Below, piece by piece: positions 1-39,469 of a stretch of DNA of 64,000 nt. The number at the start of each line of letters is the position of its first letter. The stretch's first letter is position 1. The position numbers and the translations under genes are program-made. The notes beneath the pieces were generated by a model. The model worked only from the letters and a program-made list of their open reading frames with translations, had not been told where the DNA came from and searched no databases. This DNA is from an uncultured Candidatus Saccharibacteria bacterium (lineage in GTDB: Bacteria; Patescibacteriota; Minisyncoccia; Phycocordibacterales; UBA1006). The DNA lies in NCBI GenBank assembly GCA_964507625.1, contig CAZDPR010000001.1, positions 81,499-145,498 on the forward strand, read 5' to 3'.

Positions 1-111
1 AGCAGATTCAAAATATTTGTCAAGTGTTTTCCTATATTGTCTAAAATCTCCAACAACGGTGCTCAATTTATTGAGGACTTTCGATAAAAATTAAATATTC
101 ATTTTGTCAAA

Positions 112-154
112 AATAAGTCTATTATGTTTAAAATAATAGACTTATTTATTTTTA
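112..154 (+). terminator. Intrinsic terminator-like hairpin (AATAAGTCTATTAT...ATAATAGACTTATT) followed by a T-run; it ends the transcript coming in from upstream of the window
   Basis: 14-bp inverted repeat followed by TATTTTT, read directly. Confidence 0.4.
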
Positions 155-223
155 AAAAATACTTATAAAATAATCTTATTTTTGTATTTATTCAAAATAC
201 TTGTCAATTTTTGTTGGAAATAC

Positions 224-252
224 TTGACAAATATTTTGAATTATGCTAACCT
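224..252 (+). promoter_or_regulatory. Extended -10 sigma70-like promoter P1: TTGACA (224-229), 17-nt spacer, TGcTAACCT (244-252). An upstream half-repeat AATACTTGTCAA lies at 196-207
   Basis: Motif read directly. Near-identical architecture recurs at 6598-6626 (TTGACA-17-TGaTAACAT). Confidence 0.5.
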
Positions 253-254
253 AT

Positions 255-660
255 GGGTACGAGCATGGGACAGATCATGTTCGGAGATCGCGAGAGAAAA
301 CAAAACTATCTGTCTCATTCAGGTAGTCACAATCTTCAAGTTAAGTTCCCCCGATATCAGCTCAGCGTACTGATATCAGGAATACTTAACTTGAACTCGA
401 TTTTGTTCTTTTGAGAGCCGGTTTATCGTTACGGCATGTAGGGTAAGTGGATCATAAAGGCTCCTCGAGGCCTCCGATCTGCGAATAGCTTGGGAATTAT
501 CACCCCAAGAGTTACAGGGTATGGTTCTGTGCGCACAGGATCATAAAGAACTCTGACCGACCACAACGATGAGGGGGCAAACGAGCTGATTACTCGTCTC
601 GTCTTGGTAACAAGACAAAATTGCTCCAATCGGAGAAGCGCCAATCGCGCGCTTCTCCTT
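255..660 (+). ncRNA. Candidate structured non-coding RNA (family unassigned), ~50% GC against ~33% background. Several nested hairpins, e.g. 343-391 GTTAAGTTCCCCCGATATCAG...CTGATATCAGGAATACTTAAC, 520-532 CTGTGCGCACAG, 601-616 GTCTTGGTAACAAGAC
   Basis: Sharp local GC jump in an AT-rich genome. Sits immediately downstream of promoter P1 and has no credible ORF. Flows directly into the first conserved cassette module. Confidence 0.35.
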
Positions 661-717
661 TCTATCAGGATCTCGAACTCTTTCGAGGTTCTGTAGAAAG
701 GTTGTTCTTTGAAAAAG
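632..717 (+). repeat. Cassette junction module copy 1: GC hairpin GGAGAAGCGCC...GGCGCTTCTCC plus T-run, conserved hairpin ATCTCGAA-CTCT-TTCGAGGT (670-689), CUGUAGAAA, GTTCTTTGAAAAAG (704-717)
   Basis: Recurrent module aligned by eye across 8 copies. Arms of the conserved hairpin show compensatory substitutions and position-conserved U-G wobbles on the + strand. Confidence 0.7.
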
Positions 718-768
718 TTTGGTTTGGTTATTTTAGTTTCTTTATGGAGATTAAAATAACCAAACCAG
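718..768 (+). repeat. Long perfect hairpin (17-bp stem TGGTTTGGTTATTTTAG/TTAAAATAACCAAACCA) directly 3' of GTTCTTTGAAAAAG. Homologous, with covariation, to the hairpin at 5683-5737
   Basis: Perfect inverted repeat. Compensatory changes relative to 5683-5737 (G->A paired with C->T; TTTTAG/TTAAAA -> TTTCAG/TTGAAA). Confidence 0.6.
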
Positions 769-982
769 AGACCTGATTGCTTTTTGCACAGGCCTCTCTC
801 TTCTCTTTTTTCTCATGCGTGCTTGGACAAACCCTAAGACTAGTCGTAGAACCTGAGGTCATATAAAACTTCATGATATCAGTGACTAGTATAGGAAGCC
901 GTAACTAGATTGATAAAATCTAGTGAAAACTAAATATATTTACTTGTTGAGTGAATACATTTAGATGTTTGTCCAAATCTTG

Positions 983-1095
983 CCAAGAATGAATTGTTAG
1001 TGTTTGTTAAACACGTATAATAACAGTTCATTCTTGGAAACAAGATTTTTTTATCAGGGTCTCAAATTTATTTGAGGTTCTGTAGAAAAATTCAT
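983..1095 (+). repeat. Cassette junction module copy 2 (divergent): hairpin CCAAGAATGAA...TTCATTCTTGG plus T-run, then conserved hairpin variant GTCTCAAAT-TTA-TTTGAGGT (1059-1077) and CUGUAGAAAAA
   Basis: The CGAA/TTCG to CAAA/TTTG double substitution preserves pairing, which is strong evidence for selection on RNA structure. Confidence 0.6.
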
Positions 1096-1119
1096 TTTCA
1101 AAAATTAAATAAACATAAA

Positions 1120-1398
1120 ATGAAAAACTTTAAAGGATTAACCGGTAGTGATGCAAAATTAGAGTTTGCATTGTGTGTATTACATGCAATACCTAATCAG
1201 AACACTGAGGAAATTACTCAGTTATGTCAAGAGGCTCGTGAAGCGGAGATTATTCCAGATCTTGATTTGGAAAAATTGAAAGCTGAAGCACTTGAGATTC
1301 TCCCAACTGCACAATTTTTTTACCCTACTGGTAAAGAAGCAGAAATGAGAAGGTTTCAAGATTTCCGAGACCGTATCCTTGCAATGGCAATGGAATAA
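1120..1398 (+). CDS. Hypothetical small cassette protein (93 aa from MKNFKGLTG...). The tracked ORF start at 1072 lies inside the conserved hairpin, so I moved the start to the ATG at 1120
   Basis: ORF track 1072..1398, internal ATG chosen. No recognisable domain. Confidence 0.4.
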   Translation: MKNFKGLTGSDAKLEFALCVLHAIPNQNTEEITQLCQEAREAEIIPDLDLEKLKAEALEILPTAQFFYPTGKEAEMRRFQDFRDRILAMAME

Positions 1399-1429
1399 AG
1401 GGTAGGTGATTCTAAAAAATCTACCCCTC

Positions 1430-1591
1430 ATACTCCGTTACCCCGTAAGGTAACTCCTCGCATTGGTGGCTAACAAAAATGTGGAGTATCTGTGGCACCT
1501 CTGATTACATCAGAAAAGCCACACCTGTCCTGGAATGTACTATTCCAGCTGATGAGTCCAAAAGGACGAAACAGGGTGTTCTTTGAAAAAG
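1430..1591 (+). repeat. Cassette junction module copy 3 (hammerhead variant): conserved stem UACUCC[GUUACC-CCGUAA-GGUAAC]...GGAGUA, hammerhead ribozyme, then GTTCTTTGAAAAAG (1578-1591)
   Basis: Block shared with 5540-5682. Same downstream motif and hairpin as the other modules. Confidence 0.7.
1520..1579 (+). ncRNA. Hammerhead ribozyme, type III topology. Stem III 5' strand CACCUGU, cleavage triplet GUC (1527-1529, predicted cut after 1529), stem I CUGGAAU-GUACU-AUUCCAG, core CUGAUGAG, stem II UCC-AAAA-GGA, then CGAAAC plus stem III 3' strand AGGGUG
   Basis: All invariant hammerhead core nucleotides (CUGAUGA, GAAA, GUC) are present in the correct order, with three helices of proper polarity. 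The second copy at 5610-5669 differs only in the stem I loop. Confidence 0.8.
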
Positions 1592-1593
1592 AG

Positions 1594-1647
1594 ATTGGTT
1601 TGATGAATTCAGTTTTTTCTGAAAATTGAATTCATCAAACCAAACGA
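1594..1647 (+). repeat. Long perfect hairpin (18-bp stem TTGGTTTGATGAATTCAG/TTGAATTCATCAAACCAA) immediately 5' of the next cassette ORF
   Basis: Perfect inverted repeat read directly. Same position as the hairpins at 718 and 5683. Confidence 0.55.
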
Positions 1648-1649
1648 TC

Positions 1650-1907
1650 ATGAAATATTTAATATTTGCAGCCTTGTCAACATTACTGTCTATCGGCGCT
1701 CTGATGACTTTTTCTCAAACAGATGAAAAATTCTCTCTGATATTTGGGGTTATATTTGGCGCAATGTCGATCAGTTGGTTGGTTAACTTTTATTACGACC
1801 GTAAAATAAATCGTCGTAATAAAAAAAGAATTAGCTTTGCTAATTCTTTTTTTATTGTGCTTGTTGCCAAAAATTTTCAAAAATCGTTACAAAAAATTCA
1901 TATATAG
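1650..1907 (+). CDS. Hypothetical small membrane protein (two predicted TM helices). Start moved to the MKYLIF ATG at 1650
   Basis: ORF track 1626..1907, hydrophobic stretches. The 3' end overlaps the convergent TrmB gene. Confidence 0.3.
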   Translation: MKYLIFAALSTLLSIGALMTFSQTDEKFSLIFGVIFGAMSISWLVNFYYDRKINRRNKKRISFANSFFIVLVAKNFQKSLQKIHI

Positions 1908-2628
1908 ATTTATTGGTAATAATAACAGATCTCAAACCTTTATCCCAAATGGTTATAGAAACATGATTTTTCCAAATTGAAATATTGAGGTTCGGGTTAA
2001 ATAGTGACTGGGGTAATGTACGGATCTCGCGTAACTTTGTTTTAGATCTCTTCTTCTCCTCCGCTGCTAATGGAGAATCTGACATAATCATACGAGCAGT
2101 AATATTCTTTTTTCTACGGAGATCGCCATAAGTCTTTAAACGTTCTCGAGCAACCGTAAATGTTTCTGTTGCCCCCGAAAAACGTAACACCTCGCCATAT
2201 TTTTCTTGTTCCAACGATCTAAAAAAAGTTTCTACAAAACCATCTTCACCTTCGAGATGTTCGACGTCAATTTGCTCGGAATTACCTCGTAAAGCAAAAA
2301 AGGCGCGCAGTTCAGGGAGAATGAGGTCAATCTCTAATTTCTTTTTAGTAACCAGGGCTTCCTCGTGTTCTATAAAATTTTTTAATTTTTCTGGCTTTTC
2401 AACATAAACCATTCGACGTTTACCAATAGTAGTTGTTCCCAGAACCCCTCGCTCAACGAGTTGCTCAATAGCAAGATGGATGGTAGACCGGGGAAGACCG
2501 GTTCCTTTTGCAATATCGGCAATATTTGAGAAACCATTTTTAAACAAGTAGAAAATACTTTGTTGTTCAGCAAAGTCAAAACCGATTTCTTTAAGAGAAT
2601 CTTTTAATTTTTTTGGTATTTCAATCAT
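1852..2628 (-). CDS. TrmB-family winged-HTH transcriptional regulator
   Basis: N-terminal HTH (FYLFKNGFSNIADIAKGTGLPRSTIHLAIEQLVERGVL) typical of the TrmB family. It is the only minus-strand gene inside the cassette array. Confidence 0.55.
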   Translation of the reverse strand: MIEIPKKLKDSLKEIGFDFAEQQSIFYLFKNGFSNIADIAKGTGLPRSTIHLAIEQLVERGVLGTTTIGKRRMVYVEKPEKLKNFIEHEEALVTKKKLEIDLILPELRAFFALRGNSEQIDVEHLEGEDGFVETFFRSLEQEKYGEVLRFSGATETFTVARERLKTYGDLRRKKNITARMIMSDSPLAAEEKKRSKTKLREIRTLPQSLFNPNLNISIWKNHVSITIWDKGLRSVIITNKSIYEFFVTIFENFWQQAQ

Positions 2629-2672
2629 GCTGTAAGTATAGCATTTTTATTTTAAAATGACAAATATTTTTG

Positions 2673-2704
2673 ACATTTATTAAAAATACATATAAATATC
2701 AATA
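2673..2704 (+). promoter_or_regulatory. Promoter-like TTGACA-17-TAAATA in the divergent AT-rich intergenic region between the TrmB gene and ORF 2750
   Basis: Motif read directly. Confidence 0.3.
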
Positions 2705-2749
2705 AAATAAATACTTTTTTAAAAAAGTATAACAAAAATCGTTGTTAAA

Positions 2750-2998
2750 ATGCTTGACTTATTAAAACTATTATGCTACAATGTTTTTAAGAAGATGAGG
2801 AATAACTATCCGCGAGATCCTGATTCTGTTGCTCTTTGTGAACTATTCGAAAGGAATATCCCCAGCATCATTTATAAAACGGAGATGGTGTTTGGAATAT
2901 TCCTTTCGAGGAGAAAGATTGGAAAGGCAGGTCCCTCTGCCGGTTCGGGAATTCCATGGACAGTTTTGAGCGTGCCACCGTTCAGACTCTTCGAGTAA
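2750..2998 (+). CDS. Hypothetical protein (82 aa)
   Basis: ORF track only. Confidence 0.25.
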   Translation: MLDLLKLLCYNVFKKMRNNYPRDPDSVALCELFERNIPSIIYKTEMVFGIFLSRRKIGKAGPSAGSGIPWTVLSVPPFRLFE

Positions 2999-3153
2999 TT
3001 ATTTGTTTTTACGAATAAGAACTTGATGTTGGTTTTTCAAACAAAATGGGCGGGTGAAGCAGTTCTGGTGGACGGAATCCTAGTATGGAAATTGGTAAAG
3101 GATTACGGTTAAGAAATCGTTCTCTTTTATTAAAGACCATAGTAAAGCTTCGG

Positions 3154-3244
3154 GAGAAGTGGGTGTTTTTAACAACCACTTCTCCTTTCTATCAGGATCT
3201 TAAATTTGTTTGAGGTTCTGTAGAAATATTTGTTCTTTGAAAAG
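3154..3244 (+). repeat. Cassette junction module copy 4: GGAGAAGTGG...CCACTTCTCC hairpin plus T-run, conserved hairpin ATCTTAAAT-TTG-TTTGAGGT (two U-G wobbles), CUGUAGAAA, GTTCTTTGAAAAG
   Basis: Alignment with the other copies. The arm substitutions here are tolerated only as RNA wobbles, which fixes the functional strand as +. Confidence 0.7.
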
Positions 3245-3317
3245 AGATGAAGTGAATATCTTGGATATTACCTTTTTAAACGTTTGTGTAGTATCCAGTA
3301 TATTCACTTCATCTTTA
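3241..3317 (+). repeat. Long hairpin (AGATGAAGTGAATAT...ATATTCACTTCATCT) 5' of the small ORF at 3330
   Basis: 15-bp perfect stem read directly. Confidence 0.5.
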
Positions 3318-3329
3318 AACCCATAAACT

Positions 3330-3488
3330 ATGTCCCAAAGGGAAGCACTTAAAGTAGCAGATATGTTGTTGGCCAAAAAAGGATTTAATCCTGACGGCAC
3401 CCCAAAAGGTAAGGGGCGGAAAAAGTCTCAGTCGTTCTTCGAAAGGAGGATGATCAAGACTGTCCCTATGGGTGGAAAGGTACGATAA
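3330..3488 (+). CDS. Small basic ORF (52 aa, MSQREALKVADMLLAKKGF...). Not in the ORF track because it is under 60 aa
   Basis: Correct cassette position just after the hairpin. Translated by hand. Confidence 0.2.
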   Translation: MSQREALKVADMLLAKKGFNPDGTPKGKGRKKSQSFFERRMIKTVPMGGKVR

Positions 3489-3695
3489 ACCTTTCCACCT
3501 GCATCCCTTGCAGGTTTTGACAGAGTCAAAGGGAAAATTCTAATCATCAGATCGATGTCGTTGTTGTCTATCCGTTTTACGAAAGTAAATGGTGAGCCAC
3601 AGGGAGCAGAACCTGATGAAATCATAACCAGTACGGTTGTGATCTTTATCCAAATCATGAAGCAGTTCGTGGTTTGGTAGAGAAACAGTCAAAAA

Positions 3696-3747
3696 ATGAG
3701 TTTGGTGAAATGAGGTAATTCTAGAAGCCTCACTTCACCAAACTCAC
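3696..3747 (+). repeat. Long perfect hairpin (ATGAGTTTGGTGAAATGAGG...CCTCACTTCACCAAACTCAC) ending 6 nt before the start codon at 3753
   Basis: 20-bp stem read directly. Confidence 0.5.
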
Positions 3748-3752
3748 TCACT

Positions 3753-4055
3753 ATGACTAATATGTTCGTTTCATTATCAGGATGGCAAACAGGTCGCGAA
3801 ATCGTGGAACACGATGGAAAACTGTATTTTGAGGTGGCAGAACAAGGCCACTGCAGTATCTGTCAGTCGAGGATTGATCACGTACGTGCCGTAGTTGCAC
3901 GCAAGAAATTGCAGGTAACTTATGGTCATTTACTAGATCGATTTCCGCGCGATGCACGCACCCTGTGGGTAGGATTAGAGAAACCGAAGTCAGAGATGAA
4001 TAGCGGGGAGGTGAAAGCCTTTTTCCGCGAAAACTTAGAACTTCCGATACTCTAA
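3753..4055 (+). CDS. Hypothetical cassette protein (100 aa). A C-x2-C motif suggests a possible small zinc-binding fold
   Basis: ORF track. Followed immediately by the conserved 3' element at 4070. Confidence 0.4.
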   Translation: MTNMFVSLSGWQTGREIVEHDGKLYFEVAEQGHCSICQSRIDHVRAVVARKKLQVTYGHLLDRFPRDARTLWVGLEKPKSEMNSGEVKAFFRENLELPIL

Positions 4056-4069
4056 CTTGTCGTATGTCT

Positions 4070-4260
4070 CCGGACCGGTTTCACACTACCCAATAGTACG
4101 GGTAGCCGGTTGGCAACAGAAAGTAAGTAATGCCTGCTGTGAAGCATGTATATACTGAAAAAGTGAAGCGGAGAAGTGAATGCTAAAACATTCACTTCTC
4201 ATTTTTATCAGGATCTCGAACTCATTCGAGGTTCTGTAGAAATATTTGTTCTTTGAAAAG
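4070..4260 (+). repeat. Cassette junction module copy 5, full length: 3' element CCGGACCGG..CTACCC-AATAGTAC-GGGTAG-CCGGTTGGCAACAG, terminator hairpin GAGAAGTGAATGC...TCACTTCTC plus T5, conserved hairpin ATCTCGAA-CTCA-TTCGAGGT, CUGUAGAAA, GTTCTTTGAAAAG
   Basis: Over 90% identical to 4684-4874. The 5' 55 nt also match 5404-5459. Confidence 0.75.
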
Positions 4261-4261
4261 A

Positions 4262-4312
4262 GTTTAATTGGTTACATAAGTTTTTTATGAAGATTTATGT
4301 AACCAATTAAAC
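4262..4312 (+). repeat. Long perfect hairpin (GTTTAATTGGTTACATAA...TTATGTAACCAATTAAAC) ending 10 nt before the ATG at 4323
   Basis: 18-bp stem read directly. Confidence 0.5.
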
Positions 4313-4322
4313 AAATAACACC

Positions 4323-4676
4323 ATGTCAGCTTTAAACATACATACACTGATTATTCTGAGAACACAATTTTCTAACCGATTTGAAGGTCCTAAGCCTGCG
4401 TCCCTTACCTATAGTGCAGTTTATTATGGAAATGATAGGGCATATGTTGAATATTACAATGAGAATCTTGTTGATGAAGTGGCTACACAGTGTGATTTTT
4501 GGGAGTGCGTAAACAGATATTGCGAAGAGTTTTTTATTAATGTTAAGGTTCTGGATGAGGTAGATGAAAAAGAAAAAATTGAAGAACATTTAACAAAATT
4601 AATAACTGACAAGATCGTGAAATTAGCCGGTAGACCACTCGGATCATCATTTCGAAATATTAATAAAGATTCTTAA
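4323..4676 (+). CDS. Hypothetical cassette protein (117 aa)
   Basis: ORF track. Flanked by modules on both sides. Confidence 0.4.
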   Translation: MSALNIHTLIILRTQFSNRFEGPKPASLTYSAVYYGNDRAYVEYYNENLVDEVATQCDFWECVNRYCEEFFINVKVLDEVDEKEKIEEHLTKLITDKIVKLAGRPLGSSFRNINKDS

Positions 4677-4683
4677 TACAATT

Positions 4684-4874
4684 CCGGACCGGTCTCACAC
4701 TACCCAATAGCAAGGGTAGCCGGTTGGCAACAGAAAGTAAGTAATACCTGCTGCGAAGCATGTATATACTGAAAAAGTGAAGCGGAGAAGTGAATGCTAA
4801 AGCACTCACTTCTCATTTTTATCAGGATCTCGAACTCATTCGAGGTTCTGTAGAAAGACTTGTTCCTTAAAAAG
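4684..4874 (+). repeat. Cassette junction module copy 6 (full length, near-identical to copy 5)
   Basis: Direct comparison with 4070-4260. Confidence 0.75.
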
Positions 4875-4963
4875 AGAACGAAAGCAGCTAGCAACTTATT
4901 AGATCCGGTTGATAAAACCCCACGATAAGGCGTGGAAAACTGGCATTCAGCTGGTCCGGAATT

Positions 4964-5395
4964 TTGCTTATGGAGAATATTATTCTTAATAAGACGGAGG
5001 ATTCTTCTTTCATCACTATCTCTAAAGACTTCATACCTCGATTGACTTACTTTGTTGTCAAAACATGGGACAGTTATTGGGGTGGTTATCATGAGGTCGG
5101 AGTGAAAACTCTTACCTTAATGGATAAGGATTGTGGTGTTACTCTAAAAGATCTCAAAAAGGCTATTTCGAGAAGAGGATTAGGTGCAAAGATTGTAAAA
5201 GAAAGTCATTCACATAATGGCGATGAACAATCTTTTTACTGGTCTCTTAAGGAGTGGTTCCCTGTCTATAAGATAGGTAATGAGTATTATGTCTATGCTT
5301 TTGACAAAGCTCAGTTTGGTGGTGTTGGAATTACTTTTCAACATGTAAACCATCGGGTAGCGGAAGAGCTGGATATTTTAGAGCAATTTTACTAG
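4964..5395 (+). CDS. Hypothetical cassette protein (143 aa)
   Basis: ORF track. Confidence 0.4.
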   Translation: MLMENIILNKTEDSSFITISKDFIPRLTYFVVKTWDSYWGGYHEVGVKTLTLMDKDCGVTLKDLKKAISRRGLGAKIVKESHSHNGDEQSFYWSLKEWFPVYKIGNEYYVYAFDKAQFGGVGITFQHVNHRVAEELDILEQFY

Positions 5396-5403
5396 AAGAT
5401 CCT

Positions 5404-5682
5404 CCGGACCGGTTTCACACTACCCAATAGCACGGGTAGCCGGTTGGCAACAGAAAGTACCTTGCTTGCGAGGGAAAAAGTGAAAAGGGAATCAGGTTGT
5501 GCCCTCAATAAGGAAAGACAACCACCATATATTGCTCCGTTACCCCGTAAGGTAACTCCTCGCATTGGTGACTAACAAAAATGTGGAGTAAGCGGACGTT
5601 GAACAACATCCGCACCTGTCCTGGAATGGAGTATTCCAGCTGATGAGTCCAAAAGGACGAAACAGGGTGTTCTTTGAAAAAG
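5404..5682 (+). repeat. Cassette junction module copy 7 (hammerhead variant): 3' element CCGGACCGG...GGCAACAG, then divergent linker, conserved UGCUCC[GUUACC-CCGUAA-GGUAAC]...GGAGUA block, hammerhead, GTTCTTTGAAAAAG (5669-5682)
   Basis: Shares its 5' part with copies 5 and 6 and its 3' part with copy 3. Confidence 0.7.
5610..5669 (+). ncRNA. Hammerhead ribozyme, type III, second copy. GUC at 5618-5620 (predicted cut after 5620), stem I CUGGAAU-GGAGU-AUUCCAG, CUGAUGAG, UCC-AAAA-GGA, CGAAAC-AGGGUG
   Basis: Identical core to 1520-1579. Only the stem I loop (GGAGU versus GUACU) and the distal stem III differ. Confidence 0.8.
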
Positions 5683-5737
5683 TTTGATTTGGTTATTTCA
5701 GTTTCTGTATGGAAATTGAAATAACCAAATCAAATGA
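5683..5737 (+). repeat. Long perfect hairpin (TTTGATTTGGTTATTTCAG...TTGAAATAACCAAATCAAA). A covarying homolog of the 718-768 hairpin
   Basis: 19-bp stem. Paired compensatory substitutions relative to copy 1. Confidence 0.6.
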
Positions 5738-6031
5738 ATATGAGTATTAAGCGCGCACGAGATCGTATTTGCCGAAAGGCATAGAGATTATCAAAAATCA
5801 CCCTTACACTCTTAAGGTTTTGTCATTGACATGAGTATTGGGTTTTGTCCCCATCTTACCTAAAAGATGGAGAGCCATGAAAAAGCAGATTTTCATATGA
5901 GTAAACATATTAAAAAATCCACCAAATTGTTGTGTACAGGCGTTTGGTTGGCAGGAGTTATTTTTTTATTTATTCCACGCGGAGCCAGAGTCTCTGTCGG
6001 GTTTATTTAAAAAAAAAGATGTTCTGTCATT

Positions 6032-6120
6032 GAGAAGTGTTTGCCTGGGTGAACACTTCTCTTTTCTATCAGGATCTCGAACCACTTCGAGGTTCTGCAG
6101 AAATAGTTGTTCTTTAAATC
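6032..6120 (+). repeat. Cassette junction module copy 8: GAGAAGTGTT...AACACTTCTC hairpin plus T-run, conserved hairpin ATCTCGAA-CCAC-TTCGAGGT, CUGCAGAAA, GTTCTTTAAATC
   Basis: Alignment with the other copies. Confidence 0.65.
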
Positions 6121-6597
6121 ACAAAAAACTTTAAAATGGAAACTAAAAAACCAAGGGATAGACTTCGAACTATCTAATGAGTTCTTACGCAGAACTCACC
6201 CTTTTAGTCGCTTATCAGTTCGATATTCCTGAAACGATATATGGAAGTGGCAACATCATGATGCTAGCTTAATTGTTAATTAGGTTAGAAGATTGGTGAG
6301 TTTTCGCCGGTTTAAGTGCCGGGATAGTCCCTCTCACTATAAATGTCTAGATCCGTCAAGGGTTGAGGACATAATGAGAGATGCCAAACTGATAGGGGTT
6401 ACGGAAATTAACCTCGCTCTATAAGTTTCCATGTACTGGGTTGTACAGTAAGCGAAATGAGTAAATTTTCCGTTTTTGTTCACTAAACCTTTTATTTGAT
6501 AGATTGGAAAGTTGTTAACTTTCCAATCATCATAAAAGTTTTATTAAATTCTCTAAAGAAGGCCTAATATAGGTTTTTTATTGTATTTATTTTGTAC

Positions 6598-13390: not shown

Positions 13391-14911
13391 ATGAGAAACC
13401 AAAACACACTTTTCTTTTTCTTGATTATTTTTCTGTGCAGTACTCAGGTCTTTGCATCTGATGAATGTACATGCACCTATACCTATAACGGTATAGGAGG
13501 GAACTACAACCTGGGTACCAATGAGGTACTCTGTGTACAATCCGGTACACTGACTGGAAATGTGAATATCAATGGCAGCAATGTCACGATATGTATTGCC
13601 GAAGGGGCAAACTACAGTCCCAACAATTTCAATTTCATTCACGGCCTGAAAATCGTGAACCGGGGAACCTTTATTATCAATGGTGCCAATGTGAACCATA
13701 AAGGTTACATTGATAATTATGGAACTGTTGAAGTTCGGGGAAACTTGAACTATAACAATGACCTAGAGGTGAAAAATTTTGGGACGTGGATTAATATTCC
13801 CAATTTTGAATTCAAAAGGAATTCATTATTTATCAATGAGGGGTACGTGGAATGCAGGGCTGAATTTAGTTCTGAACCACAGACTTCTTTCGTGAATAAT
13901 GGGCGAATGAAAATTGTTCAGAATTTTAATCCAAACGGGGAATTTATGAATAATGGACCACTGATCACCAATGAATTCATTAACATTAATCCTCAGGCAA
14001 GACTCACAAATCAGTGCTTTCTGTATTCTGGCAAAGGGTTCAATAATAATTCGAACCACACGCAGAACATGGGATTGATTCAGACTTCACCGGGTATGCC
14101 TATACAGTTGAATAATCGGTACTGGCAAGGTGGTAGTGGAACGCTCTGCGGAGGATCACTCATTAATAATGCGGTGGTCACAGGCGATGGTTACTATTAT
14201 TTTACAGGTAATACGGTGAACCATTCCCAGTTTGGGAATGGTAATAGCAATATTCAATTCCACGATGTTTCAAACGGGGGAAATCCGTTTGATATTGAAA
14301 ATGGATTTAGTTACATTGTATCCCATCAGGAATTTGTTCCTATGGATACAATTGCAGTTAAACAGTCAATCTGTCCTGGGTTGGCCGAAATTTTACCAGT
14401 GGAGTTAGTTTCTTTCAGTGCTTCTCGTCAGGGAATGTTGATTGAAATAAGTTGGCAAACAGCTACTGAGTTCAACTCAAGTCACTTCATTGTTGAACGG
14501 TCATATGACGCGATCAATTTTGAAGAAATTGGGAGAGTAGATGGAGCAGGTACTACACTTGTTCCACACAGTTACCACATACTCGATATGGAATCAGTCG
14601 AGTCACTTGAATCGGTTGCATATTACCGATTACGACAAGTTGACTTCGATGGTCAACTTGAAGTATTTCATATCGTTGCGGTTGATTTGGGGGACGTGGG
14701 TGATTTTGAATTACCCATTAGATTTTTCCCTAATCCAACAACGGGAATGTTATATATTCCTGGTAACGATGCAGAAAAAAGACTTTTCTCAATCAATGGT
14801 TCTTTTATTATGATGACGAAAGATCCATTCATTGATATGACTGATTTTTTGCCAGGCTTATACCTCCTGGTAATAAAAAATAAAAAAGTCGAAAAGATTT
14901 TCAAAAAATAA
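13391..14911 (+). CDS. Secreted Asn/Gly-rich repeat protein (probable beta-helix) with a C-terminal T9SS-type (Por secretion tail-like) sorting domain
   Basis: Signal peptide MRNQNTLFFFLIIFLCSTQVFA. C-terminus FPNPTTGMLYIP...INGS...IDMTDFLPGLYLLVIKNKKVEKIFKK follows the Por_Secre_tail pattern (PNP, G-x-Y, terminal K-rich strand). Confidence 0.5.
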   Translation: MRNQNTLFFFLIIFLCSTQVFASDECTCTYTYNGIGGNYNLGTNEVLCVQSGTLTGNVNINGSNVTICIAEGANYSPNNFNFIHGLKIVNRGTFIINGANVNHKGYIDNYGTVEVRGNLNYNNDLEVKNFGTWINIPNFEFKRNSLFINEGYVECRAEFSSEPQTSFVNNGRMKIVQNFNPNGEFMNNGPLITNEFININPQARLTNQCFLYSGKGFNNNSNHTQNMGLIQTSPGMPIQLNNRYWQGGSGTLCGGSLINNAVVTGDGYYYFTGNTVNHSQFGNGNSNIQFHDVSNGGNPFDIENGFSYIVSHQEFVPMDTIAVKQSICPGLAEILPVELVSFSASRQGMLIEISWQTATEFNSSHFIVERSYDAINFEEIGRVDGAGTTLVPHSYHILDMESVESLESVAYYRLRQVDFDGQLEVFHIVAVDLGDVGDFELPIRFFPNPTTGMLYIPGNDAEKRLFSINGSFIMMTKDPFIDMTDFLPGLYLLVIKNKKVEKIFKK

Positions 14912-31766: not shown

Positions 31767-32525
31767 ATGATACGAAAATCAGTACAAAAAAACACTCCAG
31801 ATATTATTATTTACACCGACGGGTCTTCCCTCGGGAATCCTGGTCCTGGTGGTTATGGGTGTGTGATTGTGTTTCAAGGGAAAAACAAAGTTATCGAACT
31901 GGGTGAATTTTCGCCAATGACTACTAATAATAAAATGGAACTGACGGCAATTATTAGATCACTCCAGTTGTTACAAAAAGAAAAAGTTTCATCTGATGCA
32001 ACGGTGGTTATTCGTACCGATTCATCCTATGCTATTAATGGAATTACCAAATGGATCCACGGGTGGAAGAAAAAGGATTGGGTAACGAGTACTAAAACTC
32101 CAGTATTGAACAGTGATTTATGGCAGGAACTTGATCAGGTTCGTTCATTATTTACCAATATTACCTATGACCATGTACGGGGACATGTAGGAATTTTTGG
32201 GAACGAACGGTGTGATACCATTGCAACCAGTTTTGCAAAAGGTGAGAACGTGCAATTATATAATGGAAATTTGAATGATTATGATCCGCGTATTTTAGAT
32301 TCAGGAAAAAGTGTTTCATCGAGCGAGAAAAAACAAAAATCAGTTTCATCAAAAAAATCTGGGAAAGCATATAGTTATGTATCATTAGTGGGTGGTGTAA
32401 TAGAAACGCATACCAATTGGGAAGAGTGTAACCGTCGGGTAACCGGAAAAAAGGCAAAATTTAAAAAAGTGTTTTCAGAAAAAGAAGAACAAGAGCTTAT
32501 CGCAGAATGGAACCGCTTACCATAA
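31767..32525 (+). CDS. rnhA: Ribonuclease HI with a Lys-rich C-terminal extension
   Basis: IYTDGSSLGNPGPGGYG, MELTA and TDSSY motifs. Confidence 0.75.
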   Translation: MIRKSVQKNTPDIIIYTDGSSLGNPGPGGYGCVIVFQGKNKVIELGEFSPMTTNNKMELTAIIRSLQLLQKEKVSSDATVVIRTDSSYAINGITKWIHGWKKKDWVTSTKTPVLNSDLWQELDQVRSLFTNITYDHVRGHVGIFGNERCDTIATSFAKGENVQLYNGNLNDYDPRILDSGKSVSSSEKKQKSVSSKKSGKAYSYVSLVGGVIETHTNWEECNRRVTGKKAKFKKVFSEKEEQELIAEWNRLP

Positions 32526-38032: not shown

Positions 38033-38089
38033 AAATCAACATTAATGGTTTTTTGGTTTATCTTACAAATTAAGGTATACTCAGTATAT

Positions 38090-39469
38090 ATGGAACAAAG
38101 AAAATTATTTGGGAAAATTACTTTTTATGGGGCAGCAGGCGAAGTAACAGGAGCAAACTTTTTACTTGAAATTAATGGGCGGAGAATATTAGTAGATTGT
38201 GGATTAGAACAAGGGATACAGGCTGATGAAAATCCAGAACGGAATTTTGGTGATTTTTATTATGATCCATCATCTATTGATGTCCTTATTGTAACTCATG
38301 CGCATACTGATCATATCGGAAGAATTCCCAAACTTGTTCGTGATGGGTTTAGCGGAATAATTTATTCAACTCCTCCTACTAAAGAAATTTCGGCACTTAT
38401 GTTTGATGACGCACTTGGTTTAATGGTTGCAGAAGCAGAAAAAAAACAAATTCCACCAATGTATAATGAACATGATATTCAGAAAACATTAGCGTTATGG
38501 AAAGTTATTTCATATCATAACCCGCTCGATTTAGGAAATGATATTATGGTTTCATTTTATGATGCTGGTCATGTATTAGGTTCTGCAATGGCTGAATTTT
38601 TTTATGCAGGAAAAAGTTTGTTGTGTACCGGAGATTTAGGAAATACTCCTACAACGCTTCTCAAAGATACAGAAGTGTTTATGACGCCAAATTTCCTTCT
38701 CATGGAATCAGTATACGGTGATCGAAACCATCCCAAAACAAATCGCCGGGAACATCTAGAACGGGTAATTGAAGATGTTGTACAAAAGGGTGGAGCACTC
38801 ATTATTCCTTCATTTTCATTAGAACGAACTCAGGAAGTATTATACGAATTAAATAGTCTCATCGAAGATGGACATGTTCCTAAAATTCCTGTTTATCTGG
38901 ATTCTCCACTTGCAATTAAAATAACTGATATATATCGAAAATCAAAAGAATATTTCAATTCCCAAGCTAAAAAAGAAATAGTGGAAGGTGATGATATTTT
39001 TCAATTTTCAGGATTGACTATTACCGAATCGACAGAAGAATCAAAAGCAATTTTTCAAAAACCAGATCCTAAAATTATTATTGCCGGTTCAGGAATGATG
39101 AATGGTGGACGGGTAGTGCACCATGCGCGACACTATTTACCAGACCCTAAAAACACTTTACTTTTGGTAGGATATCAGGCAGCAGGAACATTAGGGAGGA
39201 TTATTCAGGATGGAATTAATCCTGTAAAAATTTTTGGAGACGACGTTGTTGTTCGTGCTGATATTGATCAAATTACTGGATTTTCAGGTCACAAGGATTC
39301 CGATGAGTTGGTAAAATTTGTGGGATCGATTCAAAAAAATATTGAACAAGTGTTCGTAGTAATGGGTGATACTGAATCTTCTGAGTTTCTCGCAAAACGA
39401 TTGCGTGATAATTTTGCATTGCAAGCCATAACACCAAGTCAGGGACAAACAGTAGAATTATATATGTAA
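38090..39469 (+). CDS. Beta-CASP family MBL-fold RNA-metabolising hydrolase (RNase J / CPSF-like)
   Basis: HAHTDH motif and beta-CASP motif FSGHKD. Confidence 0.7.
   Translation: MEQRKLFGKITFYGAAGEVTGANFLLEINGRRILVDCGLEQGIQADENPERNFGDFYYDPSSIDVLIVTHAHTDHIGRIPKLVRDGFSGIIYSTPPTKEISALMFDDALGLMVAEAEKKQIPPMYNEHDIQKTLALWKVISYHNPLDLGNDIMVSFYDAGHVLGSAMAEFFYAGKSLLCTGDLGNTPTTLLKDTEVFMTPNFLLMESVYGDRNHPKTNRREHLERVIEDVVQKGGALIIPSFSLERTQEVLYELNSLIEDGHVPKIPVYLDSPLAIKITDIYRKSKEYFNSQAKKEIVEGDDIFQFSGLTITESTEESKAIFQKPDPKIIIAGSGMMNGGRVVHHARHYLPDPKNTLLLVGYQAAGTLGRIIQDGINPVKIFGDDVVVRADIDQITGFSGHKDSDELVKFVGSIQKNIEQVFVVMGDTESSEFLAKRLRDNFALQAITPSQGQTVELYM

Follow-up and report, generated by a model that had tools for sequence, protein, structure and literature searches.

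We analysed a 64,000-nucleotide stretch of DNA from an uncultured Candidatus Saccharibacteria bacterium (contig CAZDPR010000001.1, positions 81,499 to 145,498; hereafter the window), in which region 1-6200 is an array of short units that all lie on the same strand. Long hairpins stand at most of the junctions between these units, and we found them to be selected RNA structures of the sense strand: they lie on the same strand as the open reading frames (ORFs) and the ribozymes of the array, between a ribozyme (or an equivalent element) and a start codon. With regard to function, we tentatively favour a role as stabilising stem-loops in the 5' untranslated regions (5' UTRs) of RNAs that would be released from a common transcript by cleavage. 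The hairpins are designated H0 to H6 and are listed together with the other features of the array in Table 1.

An inverted-repeat search called 720-767, 1595-1643, 3245-3314, 3697-3746, 4262-4312 and 5683-5734, plus 2847-2909. The first six calls, together with the folds of the single hairpins, confirmed the hairpins that the initial annotation had reported; the seventh, which follows a GCTCTTT sequence, had been overlooked. Each of the six hairpins H1-H6 folded singly with an energy of -27.8 to -35.8 kcal/mol, corresponding to z scores of -6.5 to -9.4 against dinucleotide shuffles, and 0 of 200 shuffles folded as well as the native hairpins. These energies bear out the earlier statement that such stems exceed what is expected by chance. 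The stems are longer than the 15-20 bp first given, measuring 19-29 bp, and their description as perfect is correct for RNA only, as every window hairpin contains 2-5 G.U pairs. With G.U pairs allowed, four stems (718-769, 1595-1643, 4262-4312 and 5682-5735) run for 23-25 bp without interruption. In the remaining 58 kb of the window we found no comparable non-terminator hairpin, the other long hairpins being bidirectional A-run/T-run terminators.

Related arrays were collected along three routes. A homolog of ORF 4970-5395 (65% identity) led to two loci (L001 and L002), and an 18/20-mer scan with motif Y, a conserved element of the junctions that is described below, yielded ~19 contigs of Nomurabacteria, Saccharibacteria, Paceibacterota and Minisyncoccia amid chance matches. 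Homologs of the TrmB-like regulator encoded on the minus strand at window 1852-2628 led to 14 more loci (L047-L060), which share a synteny of TrmB-like gene, array, (VWA/AAA genes) and RNase Y; in most of them the RNase Y gene lies a few kb from the array. L047, with 83% identity in the TrmB-like protein, is the closest relative. These relatives place the host among the Patescibacteria, or candidate phyla radiation (CPR). Exact DNA-pattern scans for motif X (see below) plus linker gave no match in genome, viral and metagenome collections. Scans of IMG/VR viral contigs for the linker plus TTGGTT...AACCAA returned chance matches only, and a stricter palindrome scan of these contigs found no real member.

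The pairs within the stems revealed the strand on which the hairpins act. In the stems of 23 linker-plus-hairpin units from the window and the related loci we counted 499 Watson-Crick pairs, 74 G.U pairs and 7 A.C pairs. Since a palindrome that works at the DNA level would show G.T and A.C equally, the excess of G.U indicates that the hairpins form in the sense transcript. For G.U versus A.C the binomial p is 3e-15; this value is too strong, because the units share some homology and G.U was permitted when they were collected, yet the direction of the bias is clear. In addition, the plus strand folded 6-10 kcal/mol better than its reverse complement in four of the six window hairpins and ~3 kcal/mol better in H3, while it folded worse in H4.

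Selection on the structure was evident from the UUGGU/ACCAA family, for which we aligned 12 members (four from the window, one each from L001, L009, L024, L043, L045 and L047, and two from L057). RNAalifold returned a single 25-bp stem with compensatory double changes in 17 of its 25 pairs, and under this fixed structure 96% of the cells paired and 59 cells had double changes. The covariation score was 0.61 as compared to 0.22 in column shuffles, none of 500 shuffles matched the native alignment, and sliding the partner register by 1-3 columns lowered the pairing to 32-53%. Within the family the UUGGU/ACCAA core is invariant or nearly so, the loop is semi-conserved, one G.U pair (columns 25/41) and one U.G pair (30/36) are kept in 11 of the 12 members, and stem length is narrowly held at 24-26 bp. 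Pairing is therefore more conserved than sequence, as had been proposed from two copies alone. Those two copies, at 718 and 5683, are indeed homologous: they are separated by two compensatory double changes (G-C to A-U and U-A to C-G) and two wobble/Watson-Crick switches, and none of the changes is disruptive. When applied to the 64-kb window, the covariance model of the family matched only 713-774, 1589-1649, 3691-3752, 4257-4317 and 5678-5739; elsewhere it added members in L060, L038 and L018, and it gave 0 matches in a negative control, 734 kb of viral DNA that is unrelated but had been picked for a similar-looking pattern. Relatives of H4, the distant family member, were found in L018 and L046. 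Other hairpin types are represented by H0 and H3 in the window and by hairpins in L003, L025, L043 (at 2600) and L045 (at 5885), and H0 is kept with covariation in L018, L047, L050 and L060.

The junctions in which the hairpins are embedded follow one order: ORF, motif Y, a small hairpin, a hammerhead or motif X, G(U/C)UC(U/C)UU, an A-rich spacer, often a long hairpin, 4-13 nt, and AUG. This layout, with hammerhead or X alike, recurs in Saccharibacteria, Paceibacterota and other CPR contigs. Between the cassette ORFs lie 200-400 nt of structured RNA, and the ORFs themselves have neither a promoter nor a Shine-Dalgarno (SD) motif. The long hairpin is not a constant part of the order; contrary to the statement that every cassette begins with one, it is absent at three of the ten window junctions (1052-1119, 4820-4969 and 6067-6135). 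Where a unit bears an ORF, the foot of the hairpin is always 4-13 nt from the AUG. The spacing of 6-12 nt given by the initial annotation thus stands for H2, H4 and H5 and roughly for H3, but not for H1, which precedes no credible ORF, or for H6, which is followed only by a 16-codon ORF without a homolog in the related loci examined. Non-coding units headed by hairpins are H1 and H0 with its homologs; upstream of H0 the order is promoter, ~45-nt leader and GCTCTTT. The linker consensus GTTCTTTGAAAA(A)G lies upstream of five of the six hairpins noted first, so that GTTCTTT, said to precede the hairpins, holds for these five, whereas hairpin 3697 (H4) follows an X2 variant without GTTCTTT. Neither of the linker variants at 4862-4868 and 6109-6115 has a hairpin after it.

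Two kinds of element occupy the position directly upstream of the linker. In the hammerhead, all 54 model positions align, with a CUGAUGA...GAAA core and a GUC triplet; stem III is open, whereas stems I and II are closed and show covariation in L001 and L043. The ortholog in L047 exceeds the gathering score, at 49.5 bits. We assign this element to the type III hammerhead ribozymes, with cleavage predicted. Such a ribozyme cuts after GUC, near its own 5' end, and generates a 5'-OH end. With ~55 nt of ribozyme and the linker upstream of it, the hairpin would be left ~70 nt from the predicted hammerhead-made 5' end. Motif X is made up of two successive hairpins, the first terminator-like (GGAGAAG..CTTCTCC) and the second of 18 bp, with a single bulged U and the flanks UAUC...GUAGR; eight of its 18 pairs covary in 13 sequences, and its G.U pairs are conserved. 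Its place in the slot of the hammerhead makes X a candidate cleavage element, either a ribozyme or a nuclease site. Motif Y, at the other end of the junction, is composed of CGGACCGGUnUCAC, a variable hairpin, CCGGUUGGCAACAGAAAGUA, another variable hairpin and GAAAAAGUGA. It was found in sixteen distinct copies over several CPR classes, with occurrences outside the window in L003, L009, L014, L025, L035-L039, L041, L043, L045 and L047. Its short invariant strands and variable stems have the look of a ribozyme or riboswitch, and a UCAC/GUGA pseudoknot is possible. A comparison of the hairpins, X and Y with Rfam 15 (including pistol, hatchet, twister, twister-sister and RAGATH-n) gave no family at its gathering score, and the sub-threshold matches of the hairpins were chance look-alikes of microRNA precursors, far below threshold.

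Comparison between loci further showed that the hairpin is optional and belongs to the junction, not to the ORF, since orthologous ORFs are preceded by different hairpins or by none. The L047 ortholog of window ORF 3753-4055 (79% identity) is headed by X1, linker and an H5-type hairpin, while the window ORF itself follows X2 and H4. This H5-type hairpin, a nearly identical copy of H5, heads a different ORF than H5 does in the window, and the H3-type hairpin of L047 likewise stands before a different small ORF. The ORF 3330 family is preceded by H3 in the window and by an unrelated long hairpin in L043, and its L018 member is without a hairpin; a membrane protein gene in L001 has a hairpin and its homolog in L037 does not; and the X-containing junctions of L049 and L050 have no hairpins. 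The initial annotation had suggested looking for cassette shuffling with breakpoints at the hairpins, and this is what we observed: the L047 stretch of X1, linker and H5-type hairpin is ~93% identical to window 4200-4312 up to the 3' foot of the hairpin, where the similarity ends. While cassette exchange is thereby demonstrated, the breakpoint does not single out a recombination site, because the junction modules of 200-300 nt are repeats of 80-95% identity and homologous recombination between them explains the break equally well.

Translation signals of the host bear on the placement of the hairpins. Not one of the 38 ordinary window genes has an SD-like motif. In about half of them a -10 box, often TGnTAnnnT, ends 6-11 nt before the ATG (for example at the starts at 31767, 45567, 48946 and 52182 and of the minus-strand gene 1852-2628), which points to mRNAs with no leader or almost none. 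Within operons, genes directly adjoin the preceding gene or overlap with it. In the other array-bearing CPR loci, SD-like motifs precede 2% of the ORFs, as compared to 34% in non-CPR control loci, and TGnTAnnnT lies beside the start in 16-30%, as compared to 0% in the controls. At 4-13 nt from the AUG, the hairpin may bear on the translation of the SD-less cassette ORFs.

Our preferred reading, which we put forward as reasonable but tentative, is that the hairpin is a modular 5'-UTR stem-loop with a putative role in blocking 5'-to-3' decay or trimming, or in insulating the processed cassette RNA. We favour it because it fits the strand of the hairpins, their position after either cleavage element, their occurrence on non-coding units, their optionality and their non-occluding geometry. 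The non-coding units in particular argue that the role is not purely translational, and hairpins that are optional and swappable are as expected for a tuning module. Processed bacterial mRNAs are stabilised by 5' stem-loops, examples being ompA and, once RNase Y has cut, Bacillus subtilis gapA. The window encodes RNase Y (confirmed) as well as a beta-CASP nuclease, and RNase Y is syntenic with the arrays, which we count in favour of a stabilising role. The beta-CASP gene (38045-39469) had been described as RNase J-like; its product is a beta-CASP/RMMBL nuclease but not a canonical RNase J. Its best scores, against models of Cas14 (type VII CRISPR) and of archaeal aCPSF1, fall well short of the family cut-offs, and it could plausibly act as a 5'-3' exonuclease or an endonuclease. 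In the series of events that we infer, one promoter would give rise to a long transcript over the array, and a cut at each junction by the hammerhead or X would free the upstream RNA. Either a 5'-to-3' exonuclease or a cut in the conserved single-stranded linker would then rid the downstream RNA of its ribozyme and linker remnant, until the stem of 21-29 bp halted decay and walled off the variable cassette body. The product would be a stable RNA with the hairpin 4-13 nt ahead of the AUG; hairpin-less cassettes would be shorter-lived, and the hairpin would in this way tune relative expression.

Several observations weigh against stabilisation by the hairpin. It is not terminal but ~70 nt away from the hammerhead-made 5' end, and since the hammerhead cuts near its own 5' end, the hairpin could act only as a roadblock or become terminal after further trimming. 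A plain roadblock does not need 24-25 bp, and it explains neither the invariant core nor the retention of G.U pairs and of a semi-conserved loop, features which hint at a partner with sequence specificity. Together with the constant stem length of ~25 bp, the core and the wobble pairs favour a specific protein, either RNase III or a nuclease dedicated to the hairpin. RNase III also classically acts on perfect duplexes of such length, the tight spacing to the AUG in a host without SD motifs hints at a link to translation, and in-silico folding of five junctions gave no benefit of the hairpin for the hammerhead fold.

A number of simpler roles were considered and rejected. The hairpins are not intrinsic terminators, as none of the seven is terminator-like: they have no U tract and their 3' flanks are A-rich. 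A repressor or thermosensor that sequesters a ribosome-binding site does not fit either, with the AUG located 4-13 nt past the foot and the start codon unpaired. Insulation of the start site was likewise rejected: the mean unpaired probability of the start region was 0.57 in the native RNA, 0.55 with the hairpin deleted (p ~0.06) and 0.50 with the hairpin shuffled, so that deletion changes accessibility by almost nothing. Assistance to hammerhead folding found no support at five junctions, where the probability of the native hammerhead fold was not raised by the hairpin in a model that covers equilibrium only. Finally, no -35/-10 match that could form an internal promoter is present in the hairpins.

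In the case of cleavage by RNase III or another nuclease specific for double-stranded RNA, both strands of the perfect duplex of 21-29 bp would be cut, the remnant would be detached and an A/C-rich, G-poor leader of ~15-25 nt, made up of the lower 3' arm and the spacer, would be left ahead of the AUG. The stems, at 19-29 bp, agree with the continuous duplex of at least ~20 bp expected of an RNase III substrate; the bacterial enzyme needs roughly two helical turns, and the family stems are held at 24-26 bp. Moreover, the lower 3' arms are A/C-rich and without G, like the leaders of hairpin-less cassettes, and motif X, the substitute of the hammerhead, is likewise an 18-bp hairpin. We nevertheless regard this explanation as rather unlikely, given that the cut would duplicate the hammerhead or X cleavage only ~10-80 nt upstream and that the stems have no bulges or internal loops like those directing single-strand cuts in phage T7. 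An RNase III (rnc) signature was also not found in the ~400 kb of CPR DNA examined, which says little as the genomes are incomplete. A further candidate is a sequence-specific endonuclease of the Cas6/Csy4 kind that would recognise the hairpin and cut at or just 3' of its foot, to give near-leaderless mRNAs in a host that translates such messages. The invariant core, conserved G.U pairs and semi-conserved loop persist across CPR classes, and the foot-to-AUG distance of 4-13 nt suits an SD-less host with many -10 boxes 6-11 nt before the ATG. However, no candidate enzyme was identified, the other hairpin types are without the core, hairpin-less cassettes would need another route, and a gap varying from 4 to 13 nt gives no 5'-terminal AUG, all of which makes such a nuclease a decidedly unlikely solution. 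Control of translation could take the form of a gate that locks the A-rich leader in a duplex, or of a compact 'split-leader' hairpin by which a functional spacing between GUUCUUU and the AUG is maintained. Besides the constant proximity of foot and AUG in all ORF-bearing units of a host without SD motifs, it is backed by the length of single-stranded RNA around the hairpin, which amounts to 10-26 nt in 12 units and resembles the linker-to-AUG distance of 12-25 nt in eight hairpin-less units; the hairpin thus looks like an insertion that preserves spacing. We consider it unlikely all the same, because non-coding units also carry hairpins, the start codon and early coding region are unpaired and just as accessible without the hairpin, and no alternative fold for a ligand or temperature switch is evident.

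The preserved single-stranded length, combined with a presence that varies among orthologous cassettes, would also be expected of a largely neutral palindromic insertion into the leader, in which pairing is kept since an unfolded insert would disrupt the leader. This is very unlikely for a family that is confined to arrays, is more conserved than the neighbouring coding sequence, keeps its wobble pairs and recurs across CPR classes. Even less probable is a substrate for recombination at the DNA level, be it attC-like, as the initial annotation had offered among its suggestions, or resembling transposon-end hairpins. The array does have an integron-like layout, in which one promoter precedes small ORFs of unknown function in the same orientation between repeated palindromes at the cassette boundaries, and the hairpin foot is where the window and L047 cease to be homologous. 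But the 74 to 7 ratio of G.U to A.C points to RNA of the sense strand, the wobble pairs would turn into A.C mismatches on the other strand, and the elements lie 5' of the ORF, beside a ribozyme. The stems have neither extrahelical bases nor the imperfect pairing with an unpaired central spacer that characterises attC, showing 23-25 uninterrupted pairs instead, and the polarity of their feet is wrong. The R''/R' core sites are missing: the ends read GTTT(R)AT...AT(Y)AAAC, not RYYYAAC...GTTRRRY, and the linker is GTTCTTT, not GTTRRRY. No integrase adjoins the array in the window or in most related arrays, and no IntI-type tyrosine recombinase stands beside the arrays, whose neighbours are the TrmB-like regulator, a VWA protein, an AAA protein and RNase Y; the only recombinases are 3-4 kb away from the array, in L057 and L058. 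An identity of 80-95% between the junction modules suffices for homologous exchange. Equally improbable is a mini-ORF that starts at an AUG in the loop, ends at a UAA in the foot and hands ribosomes to the main AUG by termination-reinitiation. Five of the 12 family members have an AUG and three more a GUG at the same loop position, six of these eight frames end at the foot or a few nt from it, and operon genes of the host depend on translational coupling. However, the start codon varies: the closest relative carries AUA there, although its hairpin is almost the same in all other respects, H2 has CUG, and H4 and the L045 hairpin have no start codon. The frames differ in L001 and L043, and stops are expected by chance in AU-rich stems.

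Several known systems resemble parts of this arrangement. In RiboJ, the sTRSV hammerhead is followed by a 23-nt hairpin that is thought to stabilise the mRNA and to expose the ribosome-binding site (PMC6206723). The window junctions share with it a hammerhead that cuts near its 5' end and a hairpin directly upstream of the translation start; they differ in being natural, in occurring many times per transcript, in their stems of 21-29 bp, in a host without an SD motif to expose, in the conserved GUUCUUU linker and in the replacement of the hammerhead by X. Stabilising 5' stem-loops are known from Escherichia coli ompA and from the B. subtilis gapA (cggR-gapA, RNase Y), aprE and ermC leaders. 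There, too, a stable stem-loop at or near the 5' end hinders decay that depends on this end, and processing in combination with a hairpin leads to differential stability within an operon. Those stems are short and only a few nt from the 5' end, whereas the ones described here are far longer, ~70 nt away and grouped in families with an invariant core. Early transcripts of phages T7 and lambda carry intercistronic RNase III hairpins of about two helical turns, similar in length and polycistronic setting, although in T7 internal loops direct a single nick and the sites end up at the 3' ends of the products, in contrast to perfect duplexes beside a separate cleavage element. In the phage T4 gene 38 and gene 25 leaders, hairpins of 'split' ribosome-binding sites bring an upstream element effectively closer to the AUG; the T4 element is a Shine-Dalgarno sequence, of which there is none here, and a role of GUUCUUU in ribosome binding is a guess. 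The RAGATH motifs are conserved RNAs of unknown function near bacterial hammerhead and twister loci, as are the elements of the junctions, but no RAGATH family matched, the best scores being 18 bits for RAGATH-14 (gathering 149) and 16 bits for RAGATH-27 (gathering 76). The kind of element, a 5'-UTR stem-loop after a processing site, is thus known, while this variant, which no database describes, and its setting in an unusual and widespread type of CPR array are new. In the literature, searched in full text, we found no paper that joins hammerhead or other self-cleaving ribozymes with Patescibacteria, Saccharibacteria or the candidate phyla radiation.

Table 1. Hairpins and other features of the array, in window coordinates (bits for H hairpins refer to the covariance model of the UUGGU/ACCAA family)
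Feature	Position	Strand	Remarks
H1, UUGGU/ACCAA family	718-769	+	24 bp including G.U; after motif X and linker; no credible ORF 3'; 71 bits
H2, UUGGU/ACCAA family	1593-1645	+	23-24 bp; after hammerhead and linker; foot 6 nt from ATG of ORF 1650-1907 (4 nt if the limits 1593-1645 are used); 67 bits
H0, different sequence type	2843-2913	+	28 pairs, small internal loops; heads a non-coding unit
H3, third type	3243-3316	+	~29 pairs, two 1-nt interruptions; foot 13 nt from ATG of ORF 3330-3488
H4, distant member of the UUGGU family	3697-3746	+	19 bp, one A.C mismatch; foot 6 nt from ATG of ORF 3753-4055; 39 bits
H5, UUGGU family	4262-4312	+	24 bp; foot 10 nt from ATG of ORF 4323-4676; 72 bits
H6, UUGGU family, paralog of H1	5682-5735	+	25 bp; after hammerhead and linker; 79 bits
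Type III hammerhead ribozyme (predicted)	1522-1577; second copy 5613-5668	+	41.2 bits (gathering score 48.5)
Motif X	632-700; copies 1052-1086, 3152-3228, 3647-3681, 4171-4244, 4785-4858, 6032-6105	+	
Motif Y, conserved structured element	4068-4169; copies 4682-4783, 5402-5486	+	directly 3' of cassette ORFs
Linker GTTCTTTGAAAAAG	704-717; copies 1578-1591, 3232-3245, 4248-4261, 5669-5682	+	
Linker variants	2831-2837; 4862-4868; 6109-6115	+	GCTCTTT; GTTCCTT; GTTCTTT, respectively
Sigma-70-type promoter, second array	2754-2782	+	TTGACT-17-TACAAT with TG
TrmB-like helix-turn-helix regulator	1852-2628	-	homologs adjoin related arrays

Further features were observed in and around the arrays. Searches of the cassette proteins with Pfam and PHROGs gave nothing useful, apart from a weak holin-like match of an 85-aa cassette protein, which is a small membrane protein. 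At window 4905-4965 lies a conserved structured leader (..ACCCCACGAUAAGGCGUGGAAAAC..CAUUCAGC..) ahead of the ORF 4970-5395 family, also present in L001 (5630-5685), L035, L036 and L003; it stands in place of a long hairpin and, in L003, alongside one. A motif of the form UUGUCAUnGACAUGAG..UUUUGUCCCC, hairpin, GGAGAGCC is found at window 5815-5877, directly before the 47-aa ORF 5867-6010, and is shared with L037 (~1990-2050). Window 6136-6177 holds a 13-codon micro-ORF, METKKPRDRLRTI, with the L047 counterpart MQTKKPRDRIRTI. The array ends after this micro-ORF with ~270 nt of non-coding sequence (window 6210-6480) that is 71% identical in L047 (minus strand 5943-5572). Two G+C-richer, ORF-free stretches of 240-380 nt (250-632 and 2914-3150) lie downstream of array promoters and hold several imperfect long hairpins, for example at 335-395; they had no Rfam match and no blastn match among the related loci examined. 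A LOOT RNA (Rfam RF03000, 81 bits) occurs in L050 at 13835-13957 on the minus strand, near DUF3800 and DUF3892 genes and several kb from the array.

The roles of most bacterial self-cleaving ribozymes, and the cause of their clustering with certain small genes, are still described as largely elusive (PMC6765202). The locus described here and its relatives offer a junction grammar that can be dissected, in which the hairpin family is a handle, backed by covariation, on how RNAs cut by ribozymes are stabilised or translated, and they provide a natural counterpart of RiboJ, a widely used part of synthetic biology. As a bolder proposal, which we rate as unlikely at present, the junction of ribozyme, linker and hairpin may be a device that yields independent, near-leaderless and stable mRNAs from one promoter, with the UUGGU/ACCAA hairpin bound by a dedicated nuclease or protein. 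In Patescibacteria such as these, which lack SD motifs and would initiate translation chiefly on leaderless mRNAs or by coupling, cleavage and a 5' boundary set by the hairpin shortly ahead of each AUG would make separate messages of the internal cistrons. If true, this would supply a biological reason for the ties of hammerhead and twister ribozymes to particular small-gene neighbourhoods.

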